Source: a virus
Taxonomy: Duplodnaviria > Heunggongvirae > Uroviricota > Caudoviricetes
DNA: 44,769 nucleotides
IMG/VR virus record: IMGVR_UViG_2909298281_000003
Reading direction: 5' to 3' (one strand)
Under the pieces are notes generated by a model. The model ran no database searches. It was not told where the DNA came from and saw only the letters and a program-made list of their open reading frames with translations. A program made the translations under genes and the position numbers. Positions 1 to 35,328 of this stretch are shown one piece after another. The first letter of the stretch is position 1. Each line of letters opens with the position of its first letter.

Positions 1-3349
<3,349 letters not shown>

Positions 3350-5924: not shown

Positions 5925-6394
5925 TTTGCTGCTCCTCATCATATCGACCCTGCAAGGTCGGTTGGTTTCTCCACAAAACAGAGAAGAACACCTGCGGTGG
6001 CAGCCGCCCGGATGGATTGGGTTATGAGCCCGTCGTCCGGTGATGCTCTTCTCTGTTTTGCAAAAAAGGACGGTACCAGCCGGAAGCAAGGGTACAAACT
6101 GGTACCGCCAGGACTACACACAGCATAAAGTTGTGGTGCCGGGTGCCTCCCGGTGCCTGGCGAAGGTTGCACACTAGGCGGGTGGGTATCCACAGAAGGT
6201 CGACTGTCAGCCTCAACCTTAACCCGCGTGCGCTGAGCCGCATTCACCACAACGCTAAGGATTCTCTCTGGTTGAAAATACTTAGCTGTTATGTGCCTGC
6301 TTTTAGCCACATCAGGCGAGGTGGACCTGGTTATTCCCCAACAACAAGGATTCGGTTAATCTGGATATCCCCAACAACAATAAGAGTATTCAAT

Positions 6395-6910
6395 GTGATC
6401 GCTGAATTAACGGCAGCAATGACGGCTATTCGTGAAACAGCCCAGATTGCAAAACTAATGAACGAGGCAAAAACTCAAGCTGAAGTAAATGCGGCTATTG
6501 GTGAGCTGAACTCAAAGCTTGCGTCTATTCAGCGCGAATGCGTGTCTCTCGTTGAACTGGTGGGCTCTTATCAAGAAATAAATGCTTCTCTCAAAGCTAA
6601 AATTGCAGAATTCGAAAACTTTGAGGCTCAGACGGAAGGCTATATCCTTAACCAACTTGAGTCGGGTACTTTTGTATACTCGAAGGAGGTAATCGTGAAC
6701 GGTGGCAGCATAACCATGCATCTTTGCCCAAAATGTTTTGGACAAAAGATAGTATCGATACTTCAACCATTCCCAGTTAGCGAAGATGAGCTTTTTCATA
6801 AAAGCAGATGCCTCCACTGTGAAAATAAGTTTCTGATGAATAAAAATCCGGATTACGTATCGCCTCCATCCATTGAGGAGTTGTCCAGAAAACTTAACGG
6901 CAATCTGTAG
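6395..6910 (+). CDS. Hypothetical coiled-coil protein with a C-terminal CxxC...CxxC zinc ribbon; candidate immunity-region accessory (moron) gene
   Basis: Coding-like sequence starts near GTG 6395 or ATG 6419; motifs CPKCFGQK and CLHCENK; followed by an intrinsic terminator; opposite strand to the early-left operon. Confidence 0.5.
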   Translation: MIAELTAAMTAIRETAQIAKLMNEAKTQAEVNAAIGELNSKLASIQRECVSLVELVGSYQEINASLKAKIAEFENFEAQTEGYILNQLESGTFVYSKEVIVNGGSITMHLCPKCFGQKIVSILQPFPVSEDELFHKSRCLHCENKFLMNKNPDYVSPPSIEELSRKLNGNL

Positions 6911-6950
6911 ATTACTACTGTTGTGGATATCCAGATTGTTAAAGAGCTAA

Positions 6951-6972
6951 GCGTCCTGTAGGGCGCTTTTTT
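6951..6972 (+). terminator. Rho-independent terminator after the coiled-coil gene
   Basis: Stem gcgtcc/gggcgc with tgta loop, followed by TTTTTT. Confidence 0.55.
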
Positions 6973-7058
6973 GTTGCTAACGAATCATCCTGGACTTCAT
7001 ATGCCCCAGGCGGCTACTTCGTGGGCGTCCTGCCTGTTCGTTATCTTTGATATAAAAT

Positions 7059-7121
7059 CTAACTTAACTTAGTTATCATGGCAAGAGAAAACACCAAACT
7101 TTTCTTAGTTCGGTGCCTTAG
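7059..7121. promoter_or_regulatory. OL-like operator cluster, with presumed leftward promoter
   Basis: Repeated half-site palindromes CTAAC-N4-CTTAG (7059-7072), CAAAC-N4-CTTAG (7095-7108) and a further CTTAG at 7117-7121, just 3' of cI. Confidence 0.45.
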
Positions 7122-7137
7122 TTAGAGAAGAGAGGTC

Positions 7138-7764
7138 TTAGAGTTCGTATTGAACTCCTTTGACTACACCAATGATAAGGCAATTACCATTGATAGGGAT
7201 GTTGGGATACCGAGGATTTAATGGCACTAAAAACTTTTGAGGGCCATCGATGACTAATTTTTTTACTGTAGCTTCGTTTGTTCCATCAAGTCGAGCGATG
7301 ACTATTTTTCCATGACGAGGTTCTGCATCTGGATCTACAATCACTGTTGCGCCTTCTGGTATTGTTGGGAGGCCATTAGGGTTAGTCATGGAGTCACCTT
7401 TAACCTCTAATGCAAATGAGTTATCACCAACCTTTAATGATGTATCTACCCACTTGTCCACTTCACTAAACACTTCTGCTGCCCTGCACTCAGTAAACTG
7501 CCCAGCCTGAACCCACGATATTACAGGAACTCTGCGCATGTTTGTGACGAGTTTGCCTTCAAACTCAGCACCATAAAGAATGTAATCTATTGACGTATTG
7601 AAGAACTTCGCTAATTTCGAAAGTGCCTCCCCGCCAGGGGTATTGATGTCTTTCTCCCAGTACCCCACAGCAACGTCGCTTACTCCACAAAATTTACCCA
7701 ATTCTTTCTGGGACGTTCTGGTAACTCTTCTCAGAGCTTTTATACGCTGACCAACCGTTTCCAT
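7138..7764 (-). CDS. cI: CI-type prophage repressor (HTH_XRE N-domain plus S24 LexA-like peptidase C-domain)
   Basis: 208-aa ORF; Ser/Lys dyad context (GDSM ... VKKL); divergent from cro. Confidence 0.85.
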   Translation of the reverse strand: METVGQRIKALRRVTRTSQKELGKFCGVSDVAVGYWEKDINTPGGEALSKLAKFFNTSIDYILYGAEFEGKLVTNMRRVPVISWVQAGQFTECRAAEVFSEVDKWVDTSLKVGDNSFALEVKGDSMTNPNGLPTIPEGATVIVDPDAEPRHGKIVIARLDGTNEATVKKLVIDGPQKFLVPLNPRYPNIPINGNCLIIGVVKGVQYEL

Positions 7765-7786
7765 AGGAGCACCATTTCTTTAATTG

Positions 7787-7849
7787 CTAAGTAATCTTAG
7801 TTTTTATTGACCAAAGATAGATTTGTAATTAGCATCTAACAAAACTTAG
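7787..7849. promoter_or_regulatory. OR-like operator/promoter region (PRM/PR) between cI and cro
   Basis: Perfect palindrome CTAAGtaatCTTAG at 7787-7800 and CTAACaaaaCTTAG at 7836-7849; TTGACC -35-like at 7807-7812; GGAGGG ribosome-binding site before cro. Confidence 0.5.
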
Positions 7850-7861
7850 TTTGGAGGGCGT

Positions 7862-8062
7862 ATGACAACTGACGATATCGAAAGCTACTTCGGCAGTATT
7901 GAGAAAGTTGCTGCTTTTTTCGGCATAACAACTGAAGCCGTTTATCAGTGGCGAAACCGTCCGGGCCAGTTAATTCCAAAAGGACGTGCAGCAGAAGCTG
8001 CATATAGAACTTGCGGACGGTTGCCATTTAAACCTGAGCTTTATGAAAAATCTAATGGATAA
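7862..8062 (+). CDS. cro: Cro-like HTH regulator (66 aa)
   Basis: Small HTH ORF divergent from the repressor, ribosome-binding site GGAGGG. Confidence 0.75.
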   Translation: MTTDDIESYFGSIEKVAAFFGITTEAVYQWRNRPGQLIPKGRAAEAAYRTCGRLPFKPELYEKSNG

Positions 8063-8651
8063 ATCGATTAACAGAAACCACAGAACGATGAGGCTAACCG
8101 TGGGTAAGCATCACTGGAAAGTAGAAAAACAGCCTGAGTGGTACGTGAAAGCTGTCAGAAAAACTATCGCAAAGTTGCCGGGTGGTTACGCTGAAGCAGC
8201 TGACTGGCTGGATGTAACAGAGAACGCATTATTTAACCGCCTTCGTGCCGATGGCGATCAGATTTTCCCGCTGGGATGGGCAATGATTTTGCAACGTGCT
8301 GGTGGAACTCACTTCATTGCTGACGCAGTGGCGCAGTCTGCAAATGGCGTCTTTGTGTCTCTTCCTGACGTCGAGGATGTGGACAACGCCGATATTAACC
8401 AGCGCCTGCTGGAAGTCATTGAACAGATCGGCAGTTATTCAAAACAGATTCGTTCAGCAATTGAAGACGGTGTAGTGGAACCGCATGAGAAGACAGCAAT
8501 TAACGACGAGCTGTACCTCTCAATTTCGAAGCTGCAGGAGCATGCAGCACTGGTCTATAAAATTTTTTGCATTTCAGAAAGTAATGACGCCCGCGAGTGT
8601 GCAGCTCCGGGCGCCGTGGCGTGTCGTGACTGTGGAGAAACTAACGCATGA
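8043..8651 (+). CDS. CII-like regulatory protein (CP76-type, about 202 aa)
   Basis: Start ATG 8043 overlaps the cro stop; position downstream of cro; family assignment from memory. Confidence 0.45.
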
Positions 8652-11144: not shown

Positions 11145-11942
11145 ATGAATAATCTGATGGTCATTGATGGTATTGAAGTTCGTCGTGATGCTTATGGGCG
11201 TTACAGCCTGAACGATCTGCACAGGGCTGCCGGTTCTCTGGATAAGCATAAGCCTGCATTCTGGCTCCGCAATGAGCAAACTGAACGTTTAATAAGCGAG
11301 TTGCAGATTTGCAACTCGGTCAATATAGAGCCAGTTAACGTTATTCGTGGCGGAAATAACCAGGGGACGTATGTCTGCAAAGAACTGGTGTATGCCTATG
11401 CAATGTGGATCAGCCCGTCATTCCATCTGAAGGTGATCCGTACTTTCGATATGGTAACCAGCGCATCGGAAAAATTATCCGGGCAGGCTGCTGACAAGAT
11501 GCAGGCTGGCGTGATTCTGCTGGACTTTATGCGCCGGGAGTTAAACCTGTCTAACTCTTCAGTGCTTGGTGCCTGTCAGAAACTCCAGGAGGCTGTTGGC
11601 TTACCGAATCTGGCACCGCGCTATGCCATTGATGCTCCTGCTGACGCGCCTGATGGCTCAAGCCGTCCCACGCTGTCACTGAGTGCACTGCTGAAGCAGT
11701 ATGGTATCCGCCTGACAGCTAATCAGGCATATCACCAGATGGTGAAGCTGGGGATCGTCGAGCAGCGCGAACGATACAGCCGTACCGCTATTAACAACAT
11801 CAAAAAATTCTGGTCGCTGACAGCGAAAGGCTGCATGTTCGGCAAGAACATCACCAGTCCCGCAAATCCGCGCGAGACGCAGCCGCATTTCTTCGAATCC
11901 CGATTCCCTGAGCTGTTAAAGCTGCTCGATACCGTTCATTGA
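11145..11942 (+). CDS. KilA-N domain protein
   Basis: ATG 11145 with AGGAGA ribosome-binding site; N-terminal KilA-N-like region. Confidence 0.6.
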   Translation: MNNLMVIDGIEVRRDAYGRYSLNDLHRAAGSLDKHKPAFWLRNEQTERLISELQICNSVNIEPVNVIRGGNNQGTYVCKELVYAYAMWISPSFHLKVIRTFDMVTSASEKLSGQAADKMQAGVILLDFMRRELNLSNSSVLGACQKLQEAVGLPNLAPRYAIDAPADAPDGSSRPTLSLSALLKQYGIRLTANQAYHQMVKLGIVEQRERYSRTAINNIKKFWSLTAKGCMFGKNITSPANPRETQPHFFESRFPELLKLLDTVH

Positions 11943-19723: not shown

Positions 19724-19724
19724 G

Positions 19725-19800
19725 TAACCGGCTCATTTAAACCGTCTGGTCTGTTTCCTCCGTAACCGGCTCATTTAAACCGTCTGGTCTGTTTCCTCCG
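19725..19800 (+). repeat. Tandem duplication of the 38-bp IS66 left-end sequence
   Basis: taaccggctcatttaaaccgtctggtctgtttcctccg occurs twice back to back (19725-19762, 19763-19800). Confidence 0.8.
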
Positions 19801-19814
19801 GCTCTACAAAAATA

Positions 19815-20492
19815 ATGTCCATCATTTTTAATGGACACTATCGTATGAAACACCGGACCTGGATCACTGAAGCTTTACGTCTTCACTTTGAAGAACATTT
19901 ACCCCGGGTTGTGGCCGGGCGTCGCCTGGGTGTACCAAAATCAACAGTTTGTAGTATGTTCGTGCGCTTTCGGAGAGCTGGCCTTTCGTGGCCTTTGCCC
20001 GCAGGCATGTCGGAGCAGGAACTTGATGCCTGCCTTTACGGACAATTTTCCACGGTACCAGTCGTACGTCCTGAAAGCACCGTTATATCCGAAGCCCCCG
20101 TGGTAAAAAAACGTCCCCGGCGGCCCAACTTCCCTTATGAGTTTAAAATCGCCTTAGTGGAGCAGTCACTGCAGCCCGGAGCCTGTGTGGCGCAGATCGC
20201 CCGGGAAAACGGAATCAACGATAACCTGCTCTTCAACTGGCGCCATCAATACCGGAAAGGTGGCCTGCTGCCTTCCGGAAAAAATATGCCGGCACTGCTT
20301 CCCGTGACGTTAACGCCGGAGCCGGATAATAAAATCCCGGCCCCCGCACAGGAACCAGAGCAGATAAATACACCGTCCGACAGTCTGTGTTGTGAGCTGG
20401 TTCTGCCGGCCGGAACTCTCAGGCTTAAAGGTAAACTGACGCCTGCGTTATTACAGACACTTATCCGCGAAATAAAAGGGAGCAGCCACTGA
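19815..20492 (+). CDS. tnpA: IS66-family accessory protein TnpA (orf1); start uncertain
   Basis: HTH region FKIALVEQSLQPGACVAQIARENGINDNLLFNWRHQY typical of IS66 orf1. Confidence 0.7.
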   Translation: MSIIFNGHYRMKHRTWITEALRLHFEEHLPRVVAGRRLGVPKSTVCSMFVRFRRAGLSWPLPAGMSEQELDACLYGQFSTVPVVRPESTVISEAPVVKKRPRRPNFPYEFKIALVEQSLQPGACVAQIARENGINDNLLFNWRHQYRKGGLLPSGKNMPALLPVTLTPEPDNKIPAPAQEPEQINTPSDSLCCELVLPAGTLRLKGKLTPALLQTLIREIKGSSH

Positions 20493-20839
20493 TGATATCT
20501 CTCCCTGCAGGTTCGCGTATCTGGCTGGTTGCAGGTATCACCGATATGCGAAATGGCTTTAACGGCCTGGCATCAAAAGTTCAGAACGTCCTGAAGGATG
20601 ACCCGTTCTCCGGACACCTGTTCATCTTCCGCGGACGCCGGGGTGACCAGATAAAAGTGTTGTGGGCTGACAGTGACGGACTGTGCCTCTTCACCAAACG
20701 CCTGGAGCGGGGCCGCTTCGTCTGGCCAGTCACCCGTGACGGCAAGGTGCACCTTACTCCGGCTCAGTTATCCATGCTTCTTGAAGGTATCAACTGGAAG
20801 CACCCGAAACGAACGGAACGCGCTGGAATCCGCATATAA
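20492..20839 (+). CDS. tnpB: IS66-family TnpB (orf2)
   Basis: 115-aa ORF MISLPAGSRIWLVAGITDMRNGFNGLA…, start overlaps the tnpA stop. Confidence 0.8.
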   Translation: MISLPAGSRIWLVAGITDMRNGFNGLASKVQNVLKDDPFSGHLFIFRGRRGDQIKVLWADSDGLCLFTKRLERGRFVWPVTRDGKVHLTPAQLSMLLEGINWKHPKRTERAGIRI

Positions 20840-20858
20840 CCCGTTGTAAAGTGAGGAT

Positions 20859-22429
20859 ATGGACACCTCACTTGCTCATGAGAACGCCCGCCTGCGGGCA
20901 CTGTTGCAGACGCAACAGGACACCATCCGCCAGATGGCTGAATACAACCGCCTGCTCTCACAGCGGGTGGCGGCTTATGCTTCCGAAATCAACCGGCTGA
21001 AGGCGCTGGTTGCGAAACTGCAACGTATGCAGTTCGGTAAAAGCTCAGAAAAACTTCGTGCAAAAACCGAACGACAGATACAGGAAGCACAGGAGCGAAT
21101 CAGCGCACTTCAGGAAGAAATGGCGGAAACGCTGGGTGAGCAATATGACCCGGTACTGCCATCCGCCCTGCGCCAGTCTTCAGCCCGTAAACCGTTACCG
21201 GCCTCACTTCCCGTGAAACCCGGGTTATCCGGCCGGAAGAGGAATGCTGTCCTGCCTGTGGTGGTGAACTCAGTTCTCTGGGATGTGATGTGTCAGAGCA
21301 ACTGGAGCTTATCAGCAGCGCCTTTAAGGTTATCGAAACACAACGTCCGAAACTGGCCTGTTGCCGGTGCGACCATATCGTGCAGGCACCAGTACCTTCA
21401 AAACCCATTGCACGCAGTTATGCCGGAGCGGGGCTTCTTGCCCATGTTGTCAGCGGGAAATATGCAGACCATCTGCCGTTATACCGCCAGTCAGAAATAT
21501 ACCGTCGTCAGGGAGTGGAGCTGAGCCGTGCCACACTGGGGCGCTGGACAGGTGCTGTTGCTGAACTGCTGGAGCCGCTGTATGACGTCCTGCGCCAGTA
21601 TGTGCTGATGCCCGGTAAAGTCCATGCTGATGATATCCCCGTCCCGGTCCAGGAGCCGGGCAGCGGTAAAACCCGGACAGCCCGGCTGTGGGTCTACGTC
21701 CGTGATGACCGTAACGCCGGTTCACAGATGCCCCCGGCGGTCTGGTTCGCGTACAGTCCGGACCGGAAAGGTATCCATCCACAAAATCACCTGGCCGGTT
21801 ACAGCGGTGTGCTTCAGGCCGATGCTTACGGTGGTTACCGGGCGTTATACGAATCCGGCAGAATAACGGAAGCCGCGTGTATGGCTCATGCCCGGAGAAA
21901 AATCCACGATGTGCATGCAAGAGCGCCCACCTACATCACCACGGAAGCCCTGCAGCGTATCGGTGAACTGTATGCCATCGAGGCAGAGGTCCGGGGCTGT
22001 TCAGCAGAACAGCGTCTGGCGGCAAGAAAAGCCAGAGCCGCGCCACTGATGCAGTCACTGTATGACTGGATACAGCAACAGATGAAAACACTGTCGCGTC
22101 ACTCAGATACGGCAAAAGCGTTCGCATACCTGCTGAAACAGTGGGATGCACTGAACGTGTACTGCAGTAATGGCTGGGTGGAAATCGACAACAACATCGC
22201 AGAGAACGCCTTACGGGGAGTGGCCGTAGGCCGGAAAAACTGGATGTTCGCGGGTTCCGACAGCGGTGGTGAACATGCGGCGGTGTTGTACTCGCTGATC
22301 GGCACATGCCGTCTGAACAATGTGGAGCCAGAAAAGTGGCTGCGTTACGTCATTGAACATATCCAGGACTGGCCGGCAAACCGGGTACGCGATCTGTTGC
22401 CCTGGAAAGTTGATCTGAGCTCTCAGTAA
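20859..22429 (+). pseudogene. tnpC: IS66-family transposase TnpC, frameshifted by loss of one C at 21210-21212
   Basis: Two overlapping ORFs (20859-21524, 21290-22429); the continuous reading …LPASLP|[20 protein letters not shown]… needs one extra C in cttcccgtg. Confidence 0.7.
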
Positions 22430-22460
22430 ATATCAATACGGTTCTGACGAGTCGCTTACC

Positions 22461-34304: not shown

Positions 34305-34630
34305 AAACCTTCCGCTGGAAAGTGAAACCCGGTATGGATGTGGCTTCGGCCCCTTCTGTAAGAAAGGTGCGCTTTGGTGATGGCTATTCCCAGCGAGCGC
34401 CTGCCGGGCTGAATGCCAACCTGAAAACGTACAGCGTGACGCTTTCTGTCCCCCGTGAGGAGGCCACGGTACTGGAGTCGTTTCTGGAAGAGCACGGGGG
34501 CTGGAAATCCTTTCTGTGGACGCCGCCTTATGAGTGGCGGCAGATAAAGGTGACCTGCGCAAAATGGTCGTCGCGGGTCAGTATGCTGCGTGTTGAGTTC
34601 AGCGCAGAGTTTGAACAGGTGGTGAACTGA
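34301..34630 (+). CDS. M: Minor tail protein M
   Basis: 109-aa ORF. Confidence 0.9.
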   Translation: MKTFRWKVKPGMDVASAPSVRKVRFGDGYSQRAPAGLNANLKTYSVTLSVPREEATVLESFLEEHGGWKSFLWTPPYEWRQIKVTCAKWSSRVSMLRVEFSAEFEQVVN

Positions 34631-35328
34631 TGCAGGATATCCGGCAGGAAACACTGAATGAATGCACCCGTGCGGAGCAGTCGGCCAGCGTGGTGCTCTG
34701 GGAAATCGACCTGACAGAGGTCGGTGGAGAACGTTATTTTTTCTGTAATGAGCAGAACGAAAAAGGTGAGCCGGTCACCTGGCAGGGGCGACAGTATCAG
34801 CCGTATCCCATTCAGGGGAGCGGTTTTGAACTGAATGGCAAAGGCACCAGTACGCGCCCCACGCTGACGGTTTCTAACCTGTACGGTATGGTCACCGGGA
34901 TGGCGGAAGATCTGCAGAGTCTGGTCGGCGGAACGGTGGTCCGGCGTAAGGTTTACGCCCGTTTTCTGGATGCGGTGAACTTCGTCAACGGAAACAGTGA
35001 CGCCGATCCGGAGCAGGAGGTGATCAGCCGCTGGCGCATCGAGCAGTGCAGCGAACTGAGCGCGGTGAGTGCCTCCTTTGTACTGTCCACGCCGACGGAA
35101 ACGGATGGCGCTGTTTTTCCGGGACGTATCATGCTGGCCAACACCTGCACCTGGACCTATCGCGGCGATGAGTGCGGTTATCACGGTCCGGCGGTCGCGG
35201 ATGAATATGACCAGCCAACGTCCGATATCACGAAGGATAAATGCAGCAAATGCCTGAGCGGTTGTAAGTTCCGCAATAACGTCGGCAACTTTGGCGGCTT
35301 CCTTTCCATTAACAAACTTTCGCAGTAA
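34630..35328 (+). CDS. L: Minor tail protein L
   Basis: 232-aa ORF. Confidence 0.9.
   Translation: MQDIRQETLNECTRAEQSASVVLWEIDLTEVGGERYFFCNEQNEKGEPVTWQGRQYQPYPIQGSGFELNGKGTSTRPTLTVSNLYGMVTGMAEDLQSLVGGTVVRRKVYARFLDAVNFVNGNSDADPEQEVISRWRIEQCSELSAVSASFVLSTPTETDGAVFPGRIMLANTCTWTYRGDECGYHGPAVADEYDQPTSDITKDKCSKCLSGCKFRNNVGNFGGFLSINKLSQ

Follow-up and report, generated by a model that had tools for sequence, protein, structure and literature searches.

Introduction

Rip1 ("ring interacting pore 1") is a single-protein prophage defense in which a membrane pore is assembled around portal or small-terminase rings, according to the account of Patel et al. (2026, Nature 651:1060) given in the review PMC13434031. 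In that secondary account the protein shows no toxicity on its own, infected cells that carry it round up, and the escape mutations fall in the portal of Pseudomonas phages and, among E. coli phages, in the small terminase. The same source places 12 Rip1 subunits around an 11-mer small-terminase ring, with an amphipathic helix as the N-terminal part of the protein and the ring contacted by its C-terminal half, and it reports for the pore-like assembly the release of dye from liposomes and holes in cells (PMC13434031). Rip1 homologues are described there as widespread among the prophages of proteobacteria, and what the review says of Rip1 is matched by a meeting report and by an Avs2 paper. The PDB entry 9oox is titled as a cryo-electron microscopy (cryo-EM) structure of Escherichia phage HK446 Rip1 with the small terminase of Enterobacteria phage T6.

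In this work we analyzed a plus-strand open reading frame (ORF) found at 6395..6910 of the viral DNA record IMGVR_UViG_2909298281_000003, a 44.8-kb stretch from a member of the Caudoviricetes (the window in what follows; all coordinates refer to it unless another genome is named). By comparison with the systems described above, we consider it likely that this ORF is a single-gene prophage defense of the Rip1 family.

Assignment to the Rip1 Family

The window protein was compared with solved structures both by sequence profile and by predicted fold. A profile of 27 family members gave one strong PDB match, chain L of 9oox, which is Rip1 (E value 3.3e-27), and profile positions 4-151 were paired with residues 14-160 of the chain. 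This chain has 164 amino acids (aa), and the entry contains 12 Rip1 chains. The window protein alone also reached 9oox (E 2.7e-7), with both CxxC pairs aligned. HK446 Rip1 corresponds to gp37 (YP_007111990), and a BLASTP comparison of the window protein with HK446 gp37 showed 27% identity (E 4e-11). The hhalign probability was 98.8% for HK446 gp37 and 99.2%, over 154 columns, for gp25 of the Pseudomonas phage DMS3.

An AlphaFold2 model was obtained from a 61-sequence alignment, with a predicted local distance difference test (pLDDT) score of 90.9. It consists of helices at residues 2-23 and 28-79 and a beta-rich domain at 84-150 that holds both CxxC pairs. When the model was searched against the PDB with Foldseek, it matched chains M (E 5.7e-7) and L (E 3.3e-7) of 9oox with a probability of 1.00, and the next match had an E value of 0.18. 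The alignment with chain M covered 120 columns and had a template modeling (TM) score of 0.54 when normalized by the query and 0.70 when normalized by the target, values that compare a predicted model with a solved structure and not two structures.

The cysteines C111, C114, C139, and C142 (CPKC...CLHC) were invariant in the 61 homologues and also in the distant HkaP of HK620 and gp25 of DMS3. In the joint alignment with the distant relatives, the invariant residues were G91, Y95, C111, C114, L123, P125, C139, and C142. The homologue alignments showed the N-terminal helical half to be conserved to the same degree as the ribbon. Residues 1-25 are Ala-rich and 60% hydrophobic, with a maximal hydrophobic moment of 0.44 at residues 7-24, and no hydrophobic segment of membrane-spanning length was found in the window protein. 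A preliminary description of this DNA, made from its letters alone, had already proposed a long coiled-coil-like segment at the N terminus and a C-terminal four-cysteine ribbon, and the predicted helices and the invariant cysteines agree with it. It had also recognized no family in the protein, had taken it as a candidate for an undescribed function, and had suggested a profile search and structure prediction. Both of these returned a confident match to a described family, the Rip1 of PDB 9oox, with a solved structure and a mechanism published in 2026, and that part of the description can no longer be held. Judging from the profile comparisons and the predicted fold, the window protein is a diverged homologue of the Rip1 family, with 27-29% identity to the characterized members.

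Scans of the window protein with Pfam, NCBIfam, and PADLOC returned sub-threshold coiled-coil and zinc-ribbon noise and nothing above threshold, and no DNA-binding family was among the matches. The protein matched phrog_1244 of the PHROGs, labeled "unknown function", over its full length (E 9e-60). The first homologue search yielded 123 proteins of Enterobacterales, all of them unnamed; at 50% clustering, the family had 2741 representatives at E<=1e-3 and 1038 at E<=1e-10. By tblastn against phage genomes, distant relatives with 28-30% identity were found, namely, HkaP (HK620, HK629, and HK630) and proteins of the Pseudomonas Mu-like phages DMS3, D3112, MP38, and JBD30. The gene is present in 650 of 5426 complete E. 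coli genomes (12%) and is intact in 645 of these 650 carriers. Every match listed from a September 2026 copy of RefSeq bears the label "hypothetical protein". A second member of the Rip1 family was not found in the 44.8-kb window.

Gene, Start Codon, and Terminator

The Rip1-like ORF runs on the + strand from a GTG at 6395 to a TAG at 6908-6910 and has 171 codons, close enough to the approximately 165 codons first proposed; the frame is open from 6131. A Shine-Dalgarno sequence, AAGAG (6382..6386, + strand), is located 8 nt 5' of the GTG and is kept in the leaders of the homologues. An identical 171-aa product is annotated by RefSeq in an O157:H7 genome. The 242-aa product annotated in phage PhiR29_1 was rejected as an over-extension from an upstream TTG. 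Of 19 enterobacterial loci of the window subfamily (L006-L030), 18 start with GTG and one with TTG, and translation begins at the same residue in all of them. None of these 19 has the ATG that begins the HK446, HK620, and DMS3 relatives. The non-ATG start of the window subfamily suggests a selected low translation of a potentially lethal protein.

Downstream of the gene there is an intrinsic terminator at 6949..6974 (+ strand), as clean as it had been described, with an 8-bp stem at 6949-6968 (5 G-C pairs), a 4-nt loop, and a T6 tail. It is conserved 3' of the homologues, in two versions of the hairpin.

The ratio of nonsynonymous to synonymous substitution rates (dN/dS) of the window gene was 0.13-0.24 against five homologues, at a synonymous divergence of 0.2-2.8, and the gene is under purifying selection. 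Considering the match to PHROG 1244, the many homologues, and this dN/dS, the ORF at 6395-6910 is a genuine gene and not a chance ORF. The early view of a self-contained accessory cargo, with its own terminator and running against the flow of a lytic operon, is in line with these results, and homology indicates the exclusion or defense role that had been suggested for it.

Leader, Promoter, and Antisense RNA

Upstream of the gene, at 6295..6324 on the + strand, there is a conserved leader block, GCCTGCTTTTAGCCACATCAGGCGAGGTGG, which is common to sieB of lambda and P22, to rip1 of HK446, to hkaP of HK620, and to many unrelated cargo genes. Three elements form the leader: the block, GCCTG(T)CTTTTnACCACnTCAGGCnnnGTGG; a hairpin region; and a C-rich motif that appears twice (TCCCCAACAACAA, at 6335 and at 6368). 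In HK446 rip1 and in hkaP the leader agrees in block and layout but repeats another motif. Over the approximately 100 nt located 5' of the start, the homologues have 74-90% identity, compared with 55-94% in their coding DNA; beyond -110 the identity is 25-42% and the sequences are unrelated. Conservation is higher in the leader than in the coding sequence.

When one leader from the loci that carry the block was used for BLAST, it led to the DNA that directly precedes sieB in lambda and in P22. The homology to the sieB leaders of both phages includes the same distance to the start codon and the antisense orientation within the PL operon. In the P22 record, the region between the two copies of the motif has the annotation "promoter; sieB RNA start site" (TGTACC-17-GATAAA). 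By alignment with P22, a putative sieB-type promoter could be placed at 6332..6360 on the + strand, with TATTCC as the -35 hexamer (6332-6337), a 17-nt spacer, and GTTAAT as the -10 hexamer (6355-6360). The transcript is predicted to start near 6367, with a 5' untranslated region (UTR) of about 28 nt. The homologues have better -10 hexamers at the aligned position (TATAAT, GATAAT, and TAAAAT).

In P22, the antisense RNA sas switches the translation of sieB from SieB to Esc, as described in reviews, and it was located by RNA sequencing at P22 positions 11387-11513 of the minus strand (PMC13397905, Table 2). We found the reported sas sequence to be exactly complementary to the leader of P22, starting from the ATG of sieB and running through the block. 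Taking into account the homology of the leaders, a putative sas-like antisense RNA locus was assigned to 6289..6397 on the - strand, complementary to the block, the hairpin region, the 5' UTR, and the start codon, and a sas-like RNA may be encoded opposite the start of the Rip1-like gene. The conservation of the window leader would be explained by a known element, that is, a sieB-type promoter together with an antisense RNA locus, and we infer that sas-type regulation may have been carried over to the Rip1-like cargo.

Leaders folded one by one showed a clear hairpin in many cases, 24 of 79 having z<-2. With RNAalifold, the invariant GCCUG/CAGGC stem was all that could be recovered from 28 leaders; the length-variable hairpin had been misregistered by MAFFT. 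The strand test, in which minimum free energy (MFE) and G-U counts were taken on both strands, did not discriminate which strand is the structured RNA.

Position in the Early-Left Operon

As the preliminary description had it, cI and the early-left genes are on one strand and the gene is on the other. The left operator and promoter (OL/PL) were located at 7056..7108 on the - strand, where a promoter-like sequence, TTGCCA-17-TAGATT (7084-7056), is overlapped by the operator-like repeats CTAAC-TTAA-CTTAG (7059-7072) and CAAAC-TTTT-CTTAG (7095-7108). The pattern CTAASnnnnSTTAG has four matches in the window, in two clusters, one at 7059-7108 and the other, the right operator (OR), at 7787-7800 and 7836-7849, between cI and cro. 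The cI-type (LexA-family) repressor gene, given here for context, is at 7138..7764 on the - strand, where RefSeq has a "LexA family protein" under the match. Because OL/PL lies between the gene and cI, these signals place the gene antisense inside the early-left (PL) transcription unit and not inside the immunity region. The opposite strand was thus correctly proposed, and the location inside the immunity region was not, since OL/PL (7056-7108) separates the gene from cI. The analogy with the rexAB slot was abandoned as well: with OL/PL between cI and the gene, and with a sieB-type leader, the position is the sieB slot of the PL operon.

In lambda, sieB is found at 34485-35036 on the + strand, between ral and N, and sieB of P22 has the corresponding position. 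HK446 rip1 (gp37) and HK620 hkaP are antisense between N and cIII/ral. Other homologues are antisense at the sieB position of Rac-like prophages or between xis and cI, and in one Salmonella prophage the homologue is antisense in the early-right operon, just 3' of cro.

The homology with PhiR29_1 breaks at 7042, which is expected at the boundary of an immunity region. Relative to this phage, the cI-cro region 7043-8075 is replaced (breakpoints 7042 and 8076); it is a classic immunity-module swap, with the Rip1 cassette left on the conserved side. It was also observed that 6977-7042 is a non-coding stretch of about 60 nt with 86-95% identity in Klebsiella, Citrobacter, Pantoea, and Yersinia phages that share nothing else with the query. 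This stretch would form the first part of the PL transcript. Directly to the left of the leader block, 6060-6283 (- strand) gave a full-length sub-threshold match to the prophage small RNA STnc100 of Rfam (41.1 bits against a gathering threshold of 47, E 7.5e-7); in genome records of E. coli K-12 (strain PG20180173 and others), it bears the annotation "ymfH". STnc100 is related to the PasD small RNAs according to a 2026 preprint.

Two insertion sequence (IS) elements were observed by comparison with PhiR29_1, which is 97-99% identical elsewhere. An IS21-family element (IstB and a transposase with an rve domain) is in the integrase region, at 762-2715, and an IS66-family element (TnpA/TnpB/DDE) is in the large-terminase gene, at 19724-22460. 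The window prophage is probably defective, though the defense gene is retained, and for this window the question of self-protection is therefore partly moot.

Inverted Repeat and boxA-Like Element

The gene is bracketed by a 26-nt inverted repeat whose arms are complementary at 22 of 26 positions (85%). The left arm (6358..6383) overlaps the -10 region and the 5' UTR, and the right arm (6912..6937) includes the 10-bp palindrome TGGATATCCA and abuts the boxA-like element. Both arms are conserved across the homologues, and on the 3' side conservation covers 6912-6947. The 3' arm is also found after unrelated cargo (L056 and L113), and considering this and its contact with boxA, it more likely belongs to the backbone. 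A pairing between the 5' and 3' arms in the RNA was discarded, as the changes in one arm were uncompensated in the other when about 19 loci were compared by eye.

The boxA-like dodecamer GCTCTTTAACAA is at 6936..6947 on the - strand, the strand of the PL transcript, on which it directly follows the complement of the terminator hairpin. This element has a single exact copy in the 44.8-kb window, it is kept in loci with different backbones (L006, L008, L010, L012, and L013), and it is also present after unrelated cargo. We take this dodecamer to be identical to the core of the rrn-type boxA consensus of E. coli. It is a candidate nutL-like antitermination signal of the enclosing early-left operon and would not be a part of the gene. 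Since no N-like gene is evident, it may be an antitermination site of rrn style, in which a hairpin is followed by boxA.

Cargo Behind the Same Leader

The leader block, searched in IMG/VR as an exact pattern, was found in at least 120 stretches, and 80 loci were analyzed. A Rip1-like ORF was downstream of the block in 6 of the 80 and SieB cargo in 9; outside the 6, 60 loci had a callable ORF, with more than 25 unrelated families of small ORFs, and 14 had none. Apart from Rip1-like and SieB cargo, most loci with a callable ORF had cargo of more than 20 additional families of small ORFs, and eight of these families, when scanned, gave no significant match in Pfam or PADLOC. A specificity of the block for Rip1-like genes was ruled out by the first of these counts. 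One of the cargo families is true SieB (PF14163, 49.9 bits), and nine other cargo representatives had no Pfam or PADLOC family, two of them with weak sub-threshold matches.

We propose tentatively, and with more doubt than confidence, that lambdoid phages have a hotspot of cargo exchange, of which the leader of sieB and sas is the fixed frame. If this were true, genomes could be searched cheaply for undiscovered single-protein defenses with the leader as the marker, and the shared antisense RNA or the PL read-through could be a generic self-immunity switch. It would also follow that any phage with the same frame could silence the abortive-infection cargo of a resident. The characterized Rip1 genes of E. 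coli phages share the sieB leader.

Two other loci with this leader deserve mention on their own. In the same slot of SfV (U82619.2, L002), positions 2702-3010 contain the leader block, the hairpin, and an unannotated + strand ORF of 81 aa (MTFDEKELDN...); in the SfV record that hairpin is annotated as a minus-strand terminator, and orf33 is called on the other strand. In an IMG/VR contig (L082), the cargo behind the same leader is a 136-aa protein with a coiled-coil half and a CPNC...CSFC ribbon, the layout of Rip1. The profile of the Rip1 family gave no match to this protein, which could be a very distant Rip1 relative or a convergent design.

Proposed Mechanism and Alternative Explanations

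Taking into account what is described for Rip1, the following mode of action can be proposed for the window protein. In the lysogen, low-level transcription from its own weak sieB-type promoter and translation from the GTG would supply a protein of about 19 kDa that would be harmless alone; the weakness of the promoter and the conservation of the GTG start agree with such low constitutive expression. When an infecting phage reaches late gene expression, ring oligomers of its small terminase or portal would be bound by the C-terminal zinc-ribbon/beta domain, and the ring would serve as a template for the Rip1 oligomer, as in the solved homologue with 12 Rip1 around the 11-mer terminase. The N-terminal helices would then line a membrane pore, the inner membrane would be breached before the virions are complete, and the cell would die without progeny, that is, by abortive infection. 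When the prophage or a relative goes lytic, leftward transcription or the sas-like RNA may shut the gene down. The window homologue would thus act like Rip1, and its trigger, promoter use, and antisense control are transferred in the same way from its relatives. It is also possible that the window subfamily, with its GTG start and its presence in 12% of E. coli genomes, may sense a ring protein other than the published ones.

Several observations weigh against this proposal. The identity to the studied Rip1 proteins is only 27-29%, and the specificity of the trigger, and even the outcome, could differ. The N-terminal helices are moderately amphipathic, with a hydrophobic moment of 0.44 at most. 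Upstream of the gene, no promoter was called by a consensus sigma-70 scan, and the hexamers of the putative promoter are poor. The hairpin, strong in leaders of the P22 and HK446 types, is weak in the window leader (z +0.7). PADLOC (2023) has no model for the family, hence there is no independent confirmation from a defense database. Finally, the oligomerization, pore formation, and phenotype attributed to the window protein are taken from its homology.

It could be thought that a Rip1-like ring binder serves the resident phage, by lysis timing or packaging control, or that it excludes other phages by sequestering terminase or portal without a pore, but we regard this as unlikely. The 27-29% identity to characterized Rip1 and the moderate amphipathicity of the N-terminal helices would be compatible with it, and the gene lies within lytic operons in every context seen, as would also befit an accessory function in the phage cycle. 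However, an antisense gene with a promoter-like leader and a terminator of its own has the layout of a moron expressed in the lysogen and not that of a lytic gene. Moreover, its leader is that of the exclusion gene sieB, the prophage, with IS elements inside its integrase and large-terminase genes, has kept the gene, and the helical half is conserved like the ribbon.

The possibility that the protein is a zinc-ribbon regulator, binding TGGATATCCA sites or RNA and controlling early-left expression or its own, seems very remote to us. The ribbon domain matches the Rip1 domain that is reported to contact a protein ring, although four-cysteine ribbons often bind nucleic acids. The conserved 26-nt inverted repeat with its 10-bp palindrome does bracket the gene, with the boxA-like element adjoining, but the same repeat and boxA follow the unrelated cargo of L056 and L113, which assigns them to the frame of the cassette or to the backbone and not to this protein; besides, HK446 rip1 has no 3' repeat, and the family scans of the window protein gave no DNA-binding match. 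A silent passenger, namely an intact ORF that goes unexpressed and serves no function in its host today while the prophage decays, is likewise hardly credible in view of the dN/dS of 0.13-0.24, of the 645 intact copies among 650 carrier E. coli genomes, and of a leader conserved beyond the coding sequence. The IS21- and IS66-family insertions found against PhiR29_1, in the integrase region and in the large-terminase gene, would agree with such decay, and so would a promoter weak by consensus and a GTG start; yet these last two traits are themselves conserved, which fits the deliberately low expression of a potentially lethal protein.

The placement in the Rip1 family gives the gene a testable mechanism and a predicted class of trigger, the portal or small-terminase rings, and it bears on host range in phage therapy. 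About one complete E. coli genome in eight carries the gene, O157:H7 included. Its antisense silencing in lytic growth is a testable idea of how a prophage could avoid being killed by its own abortive-infection protein.

Comparison with Known Systems

SieB of lambda and P22, an abortive-type exclusion function expressed by the prophage, comes from the same slot as the window gene and has a homologous promoter and leader. The two proteins are unrelated, SieB being a membrane protein of PF14163, and the window protein gave no match to this family at E<=10 in Pfam. An internal start like that of Esc was considered and rejected, as Met9 is not conserved in the homologues.

The rexAB genes of lambda lie between cI and OL/PL, in one transcript with cI. 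RexAB has in common with the proposed function that it is an abortive infection system expressed by the prophage near the repressor and ending in the permeabilization of the membrane. The window gene differs from it in being beyond OL/PL from cI and on the opposite strand, and there is no sequence relationship.

The gene of the casadabanviruses (DMS3 gp25, D3112 orf25, MP38 ORF25, and JBD30) encodes a protein with 29% identity to the window protein and the same invariant residues. DMS3 gp25 is antisense between DMS3-24, annotated as "DNA binding protein", and the large terminase gene; in our reading, DMS3-24 has the position described for the small terminase of this phage group. The gene of DMS3 is in the late (packaging) operon and has no sieB-type leader, while the window gene is in the early-left operon. 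The inter-terminase position is the site that the review cited above gives for the original Rip1 of P. aeruginosa (PMC13434031), and we infer that the published Pseudomonas Rip1 is a member of the casadabanvirus group. The slot of DMS3 gp25 between the terminase genes is filled in Pseudomonas phage JBD26 by Tab, likewise a defense aimed at proteins of virion morphogenesis (Patel et al. 2024, PMC10884400). Tab has 83 residues and acts through the tape measure protein to block the assembly of tails; an anti-Tab gene accompanies it (PMC10884400). The identification of the Pseudomonas homologue with Tab was ruled out, as Tab is an unrelated protein of 83 residues.

HkaP of HK620, HK629, and HK630, annotated as "putative superinfection exclusion protein", has 26-28% identity to the window protein and the same slot, orientation, and leader, and it belongs to a different subfamily. 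A search of the literature by this name was dominated by unrelated acronyms, and experimental data on HkaP were not found in it.

The closest parallel is with HK446. HK446 rip1 and the window gene are single genes opposite the PL operon of a lambdoid phage, and both have the common leader block and a duplicated C-rich motif before the start. The differences are the ATG of HK446 rip1 against the GTG of the window subfamily, the 27% identity of the proteins, the lack of the 3' arm of the inverted repeat in HK446 rip1, and the surroundings: HK446 rip1 is between N and ral/cIII, but no N gene is present at that point of the window phage, whose cassette abuts a boxA-like site near PL. Both proteins have 164-171 aa, a helical N-terminal half, a GY..L....G..VY hairpin, the arrangement CxxC...SILQ...CxxC, and the same predicted fold. 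The Rip1 family and its mechanism were already known, and what is new here is a diverged member in the sieB slot.

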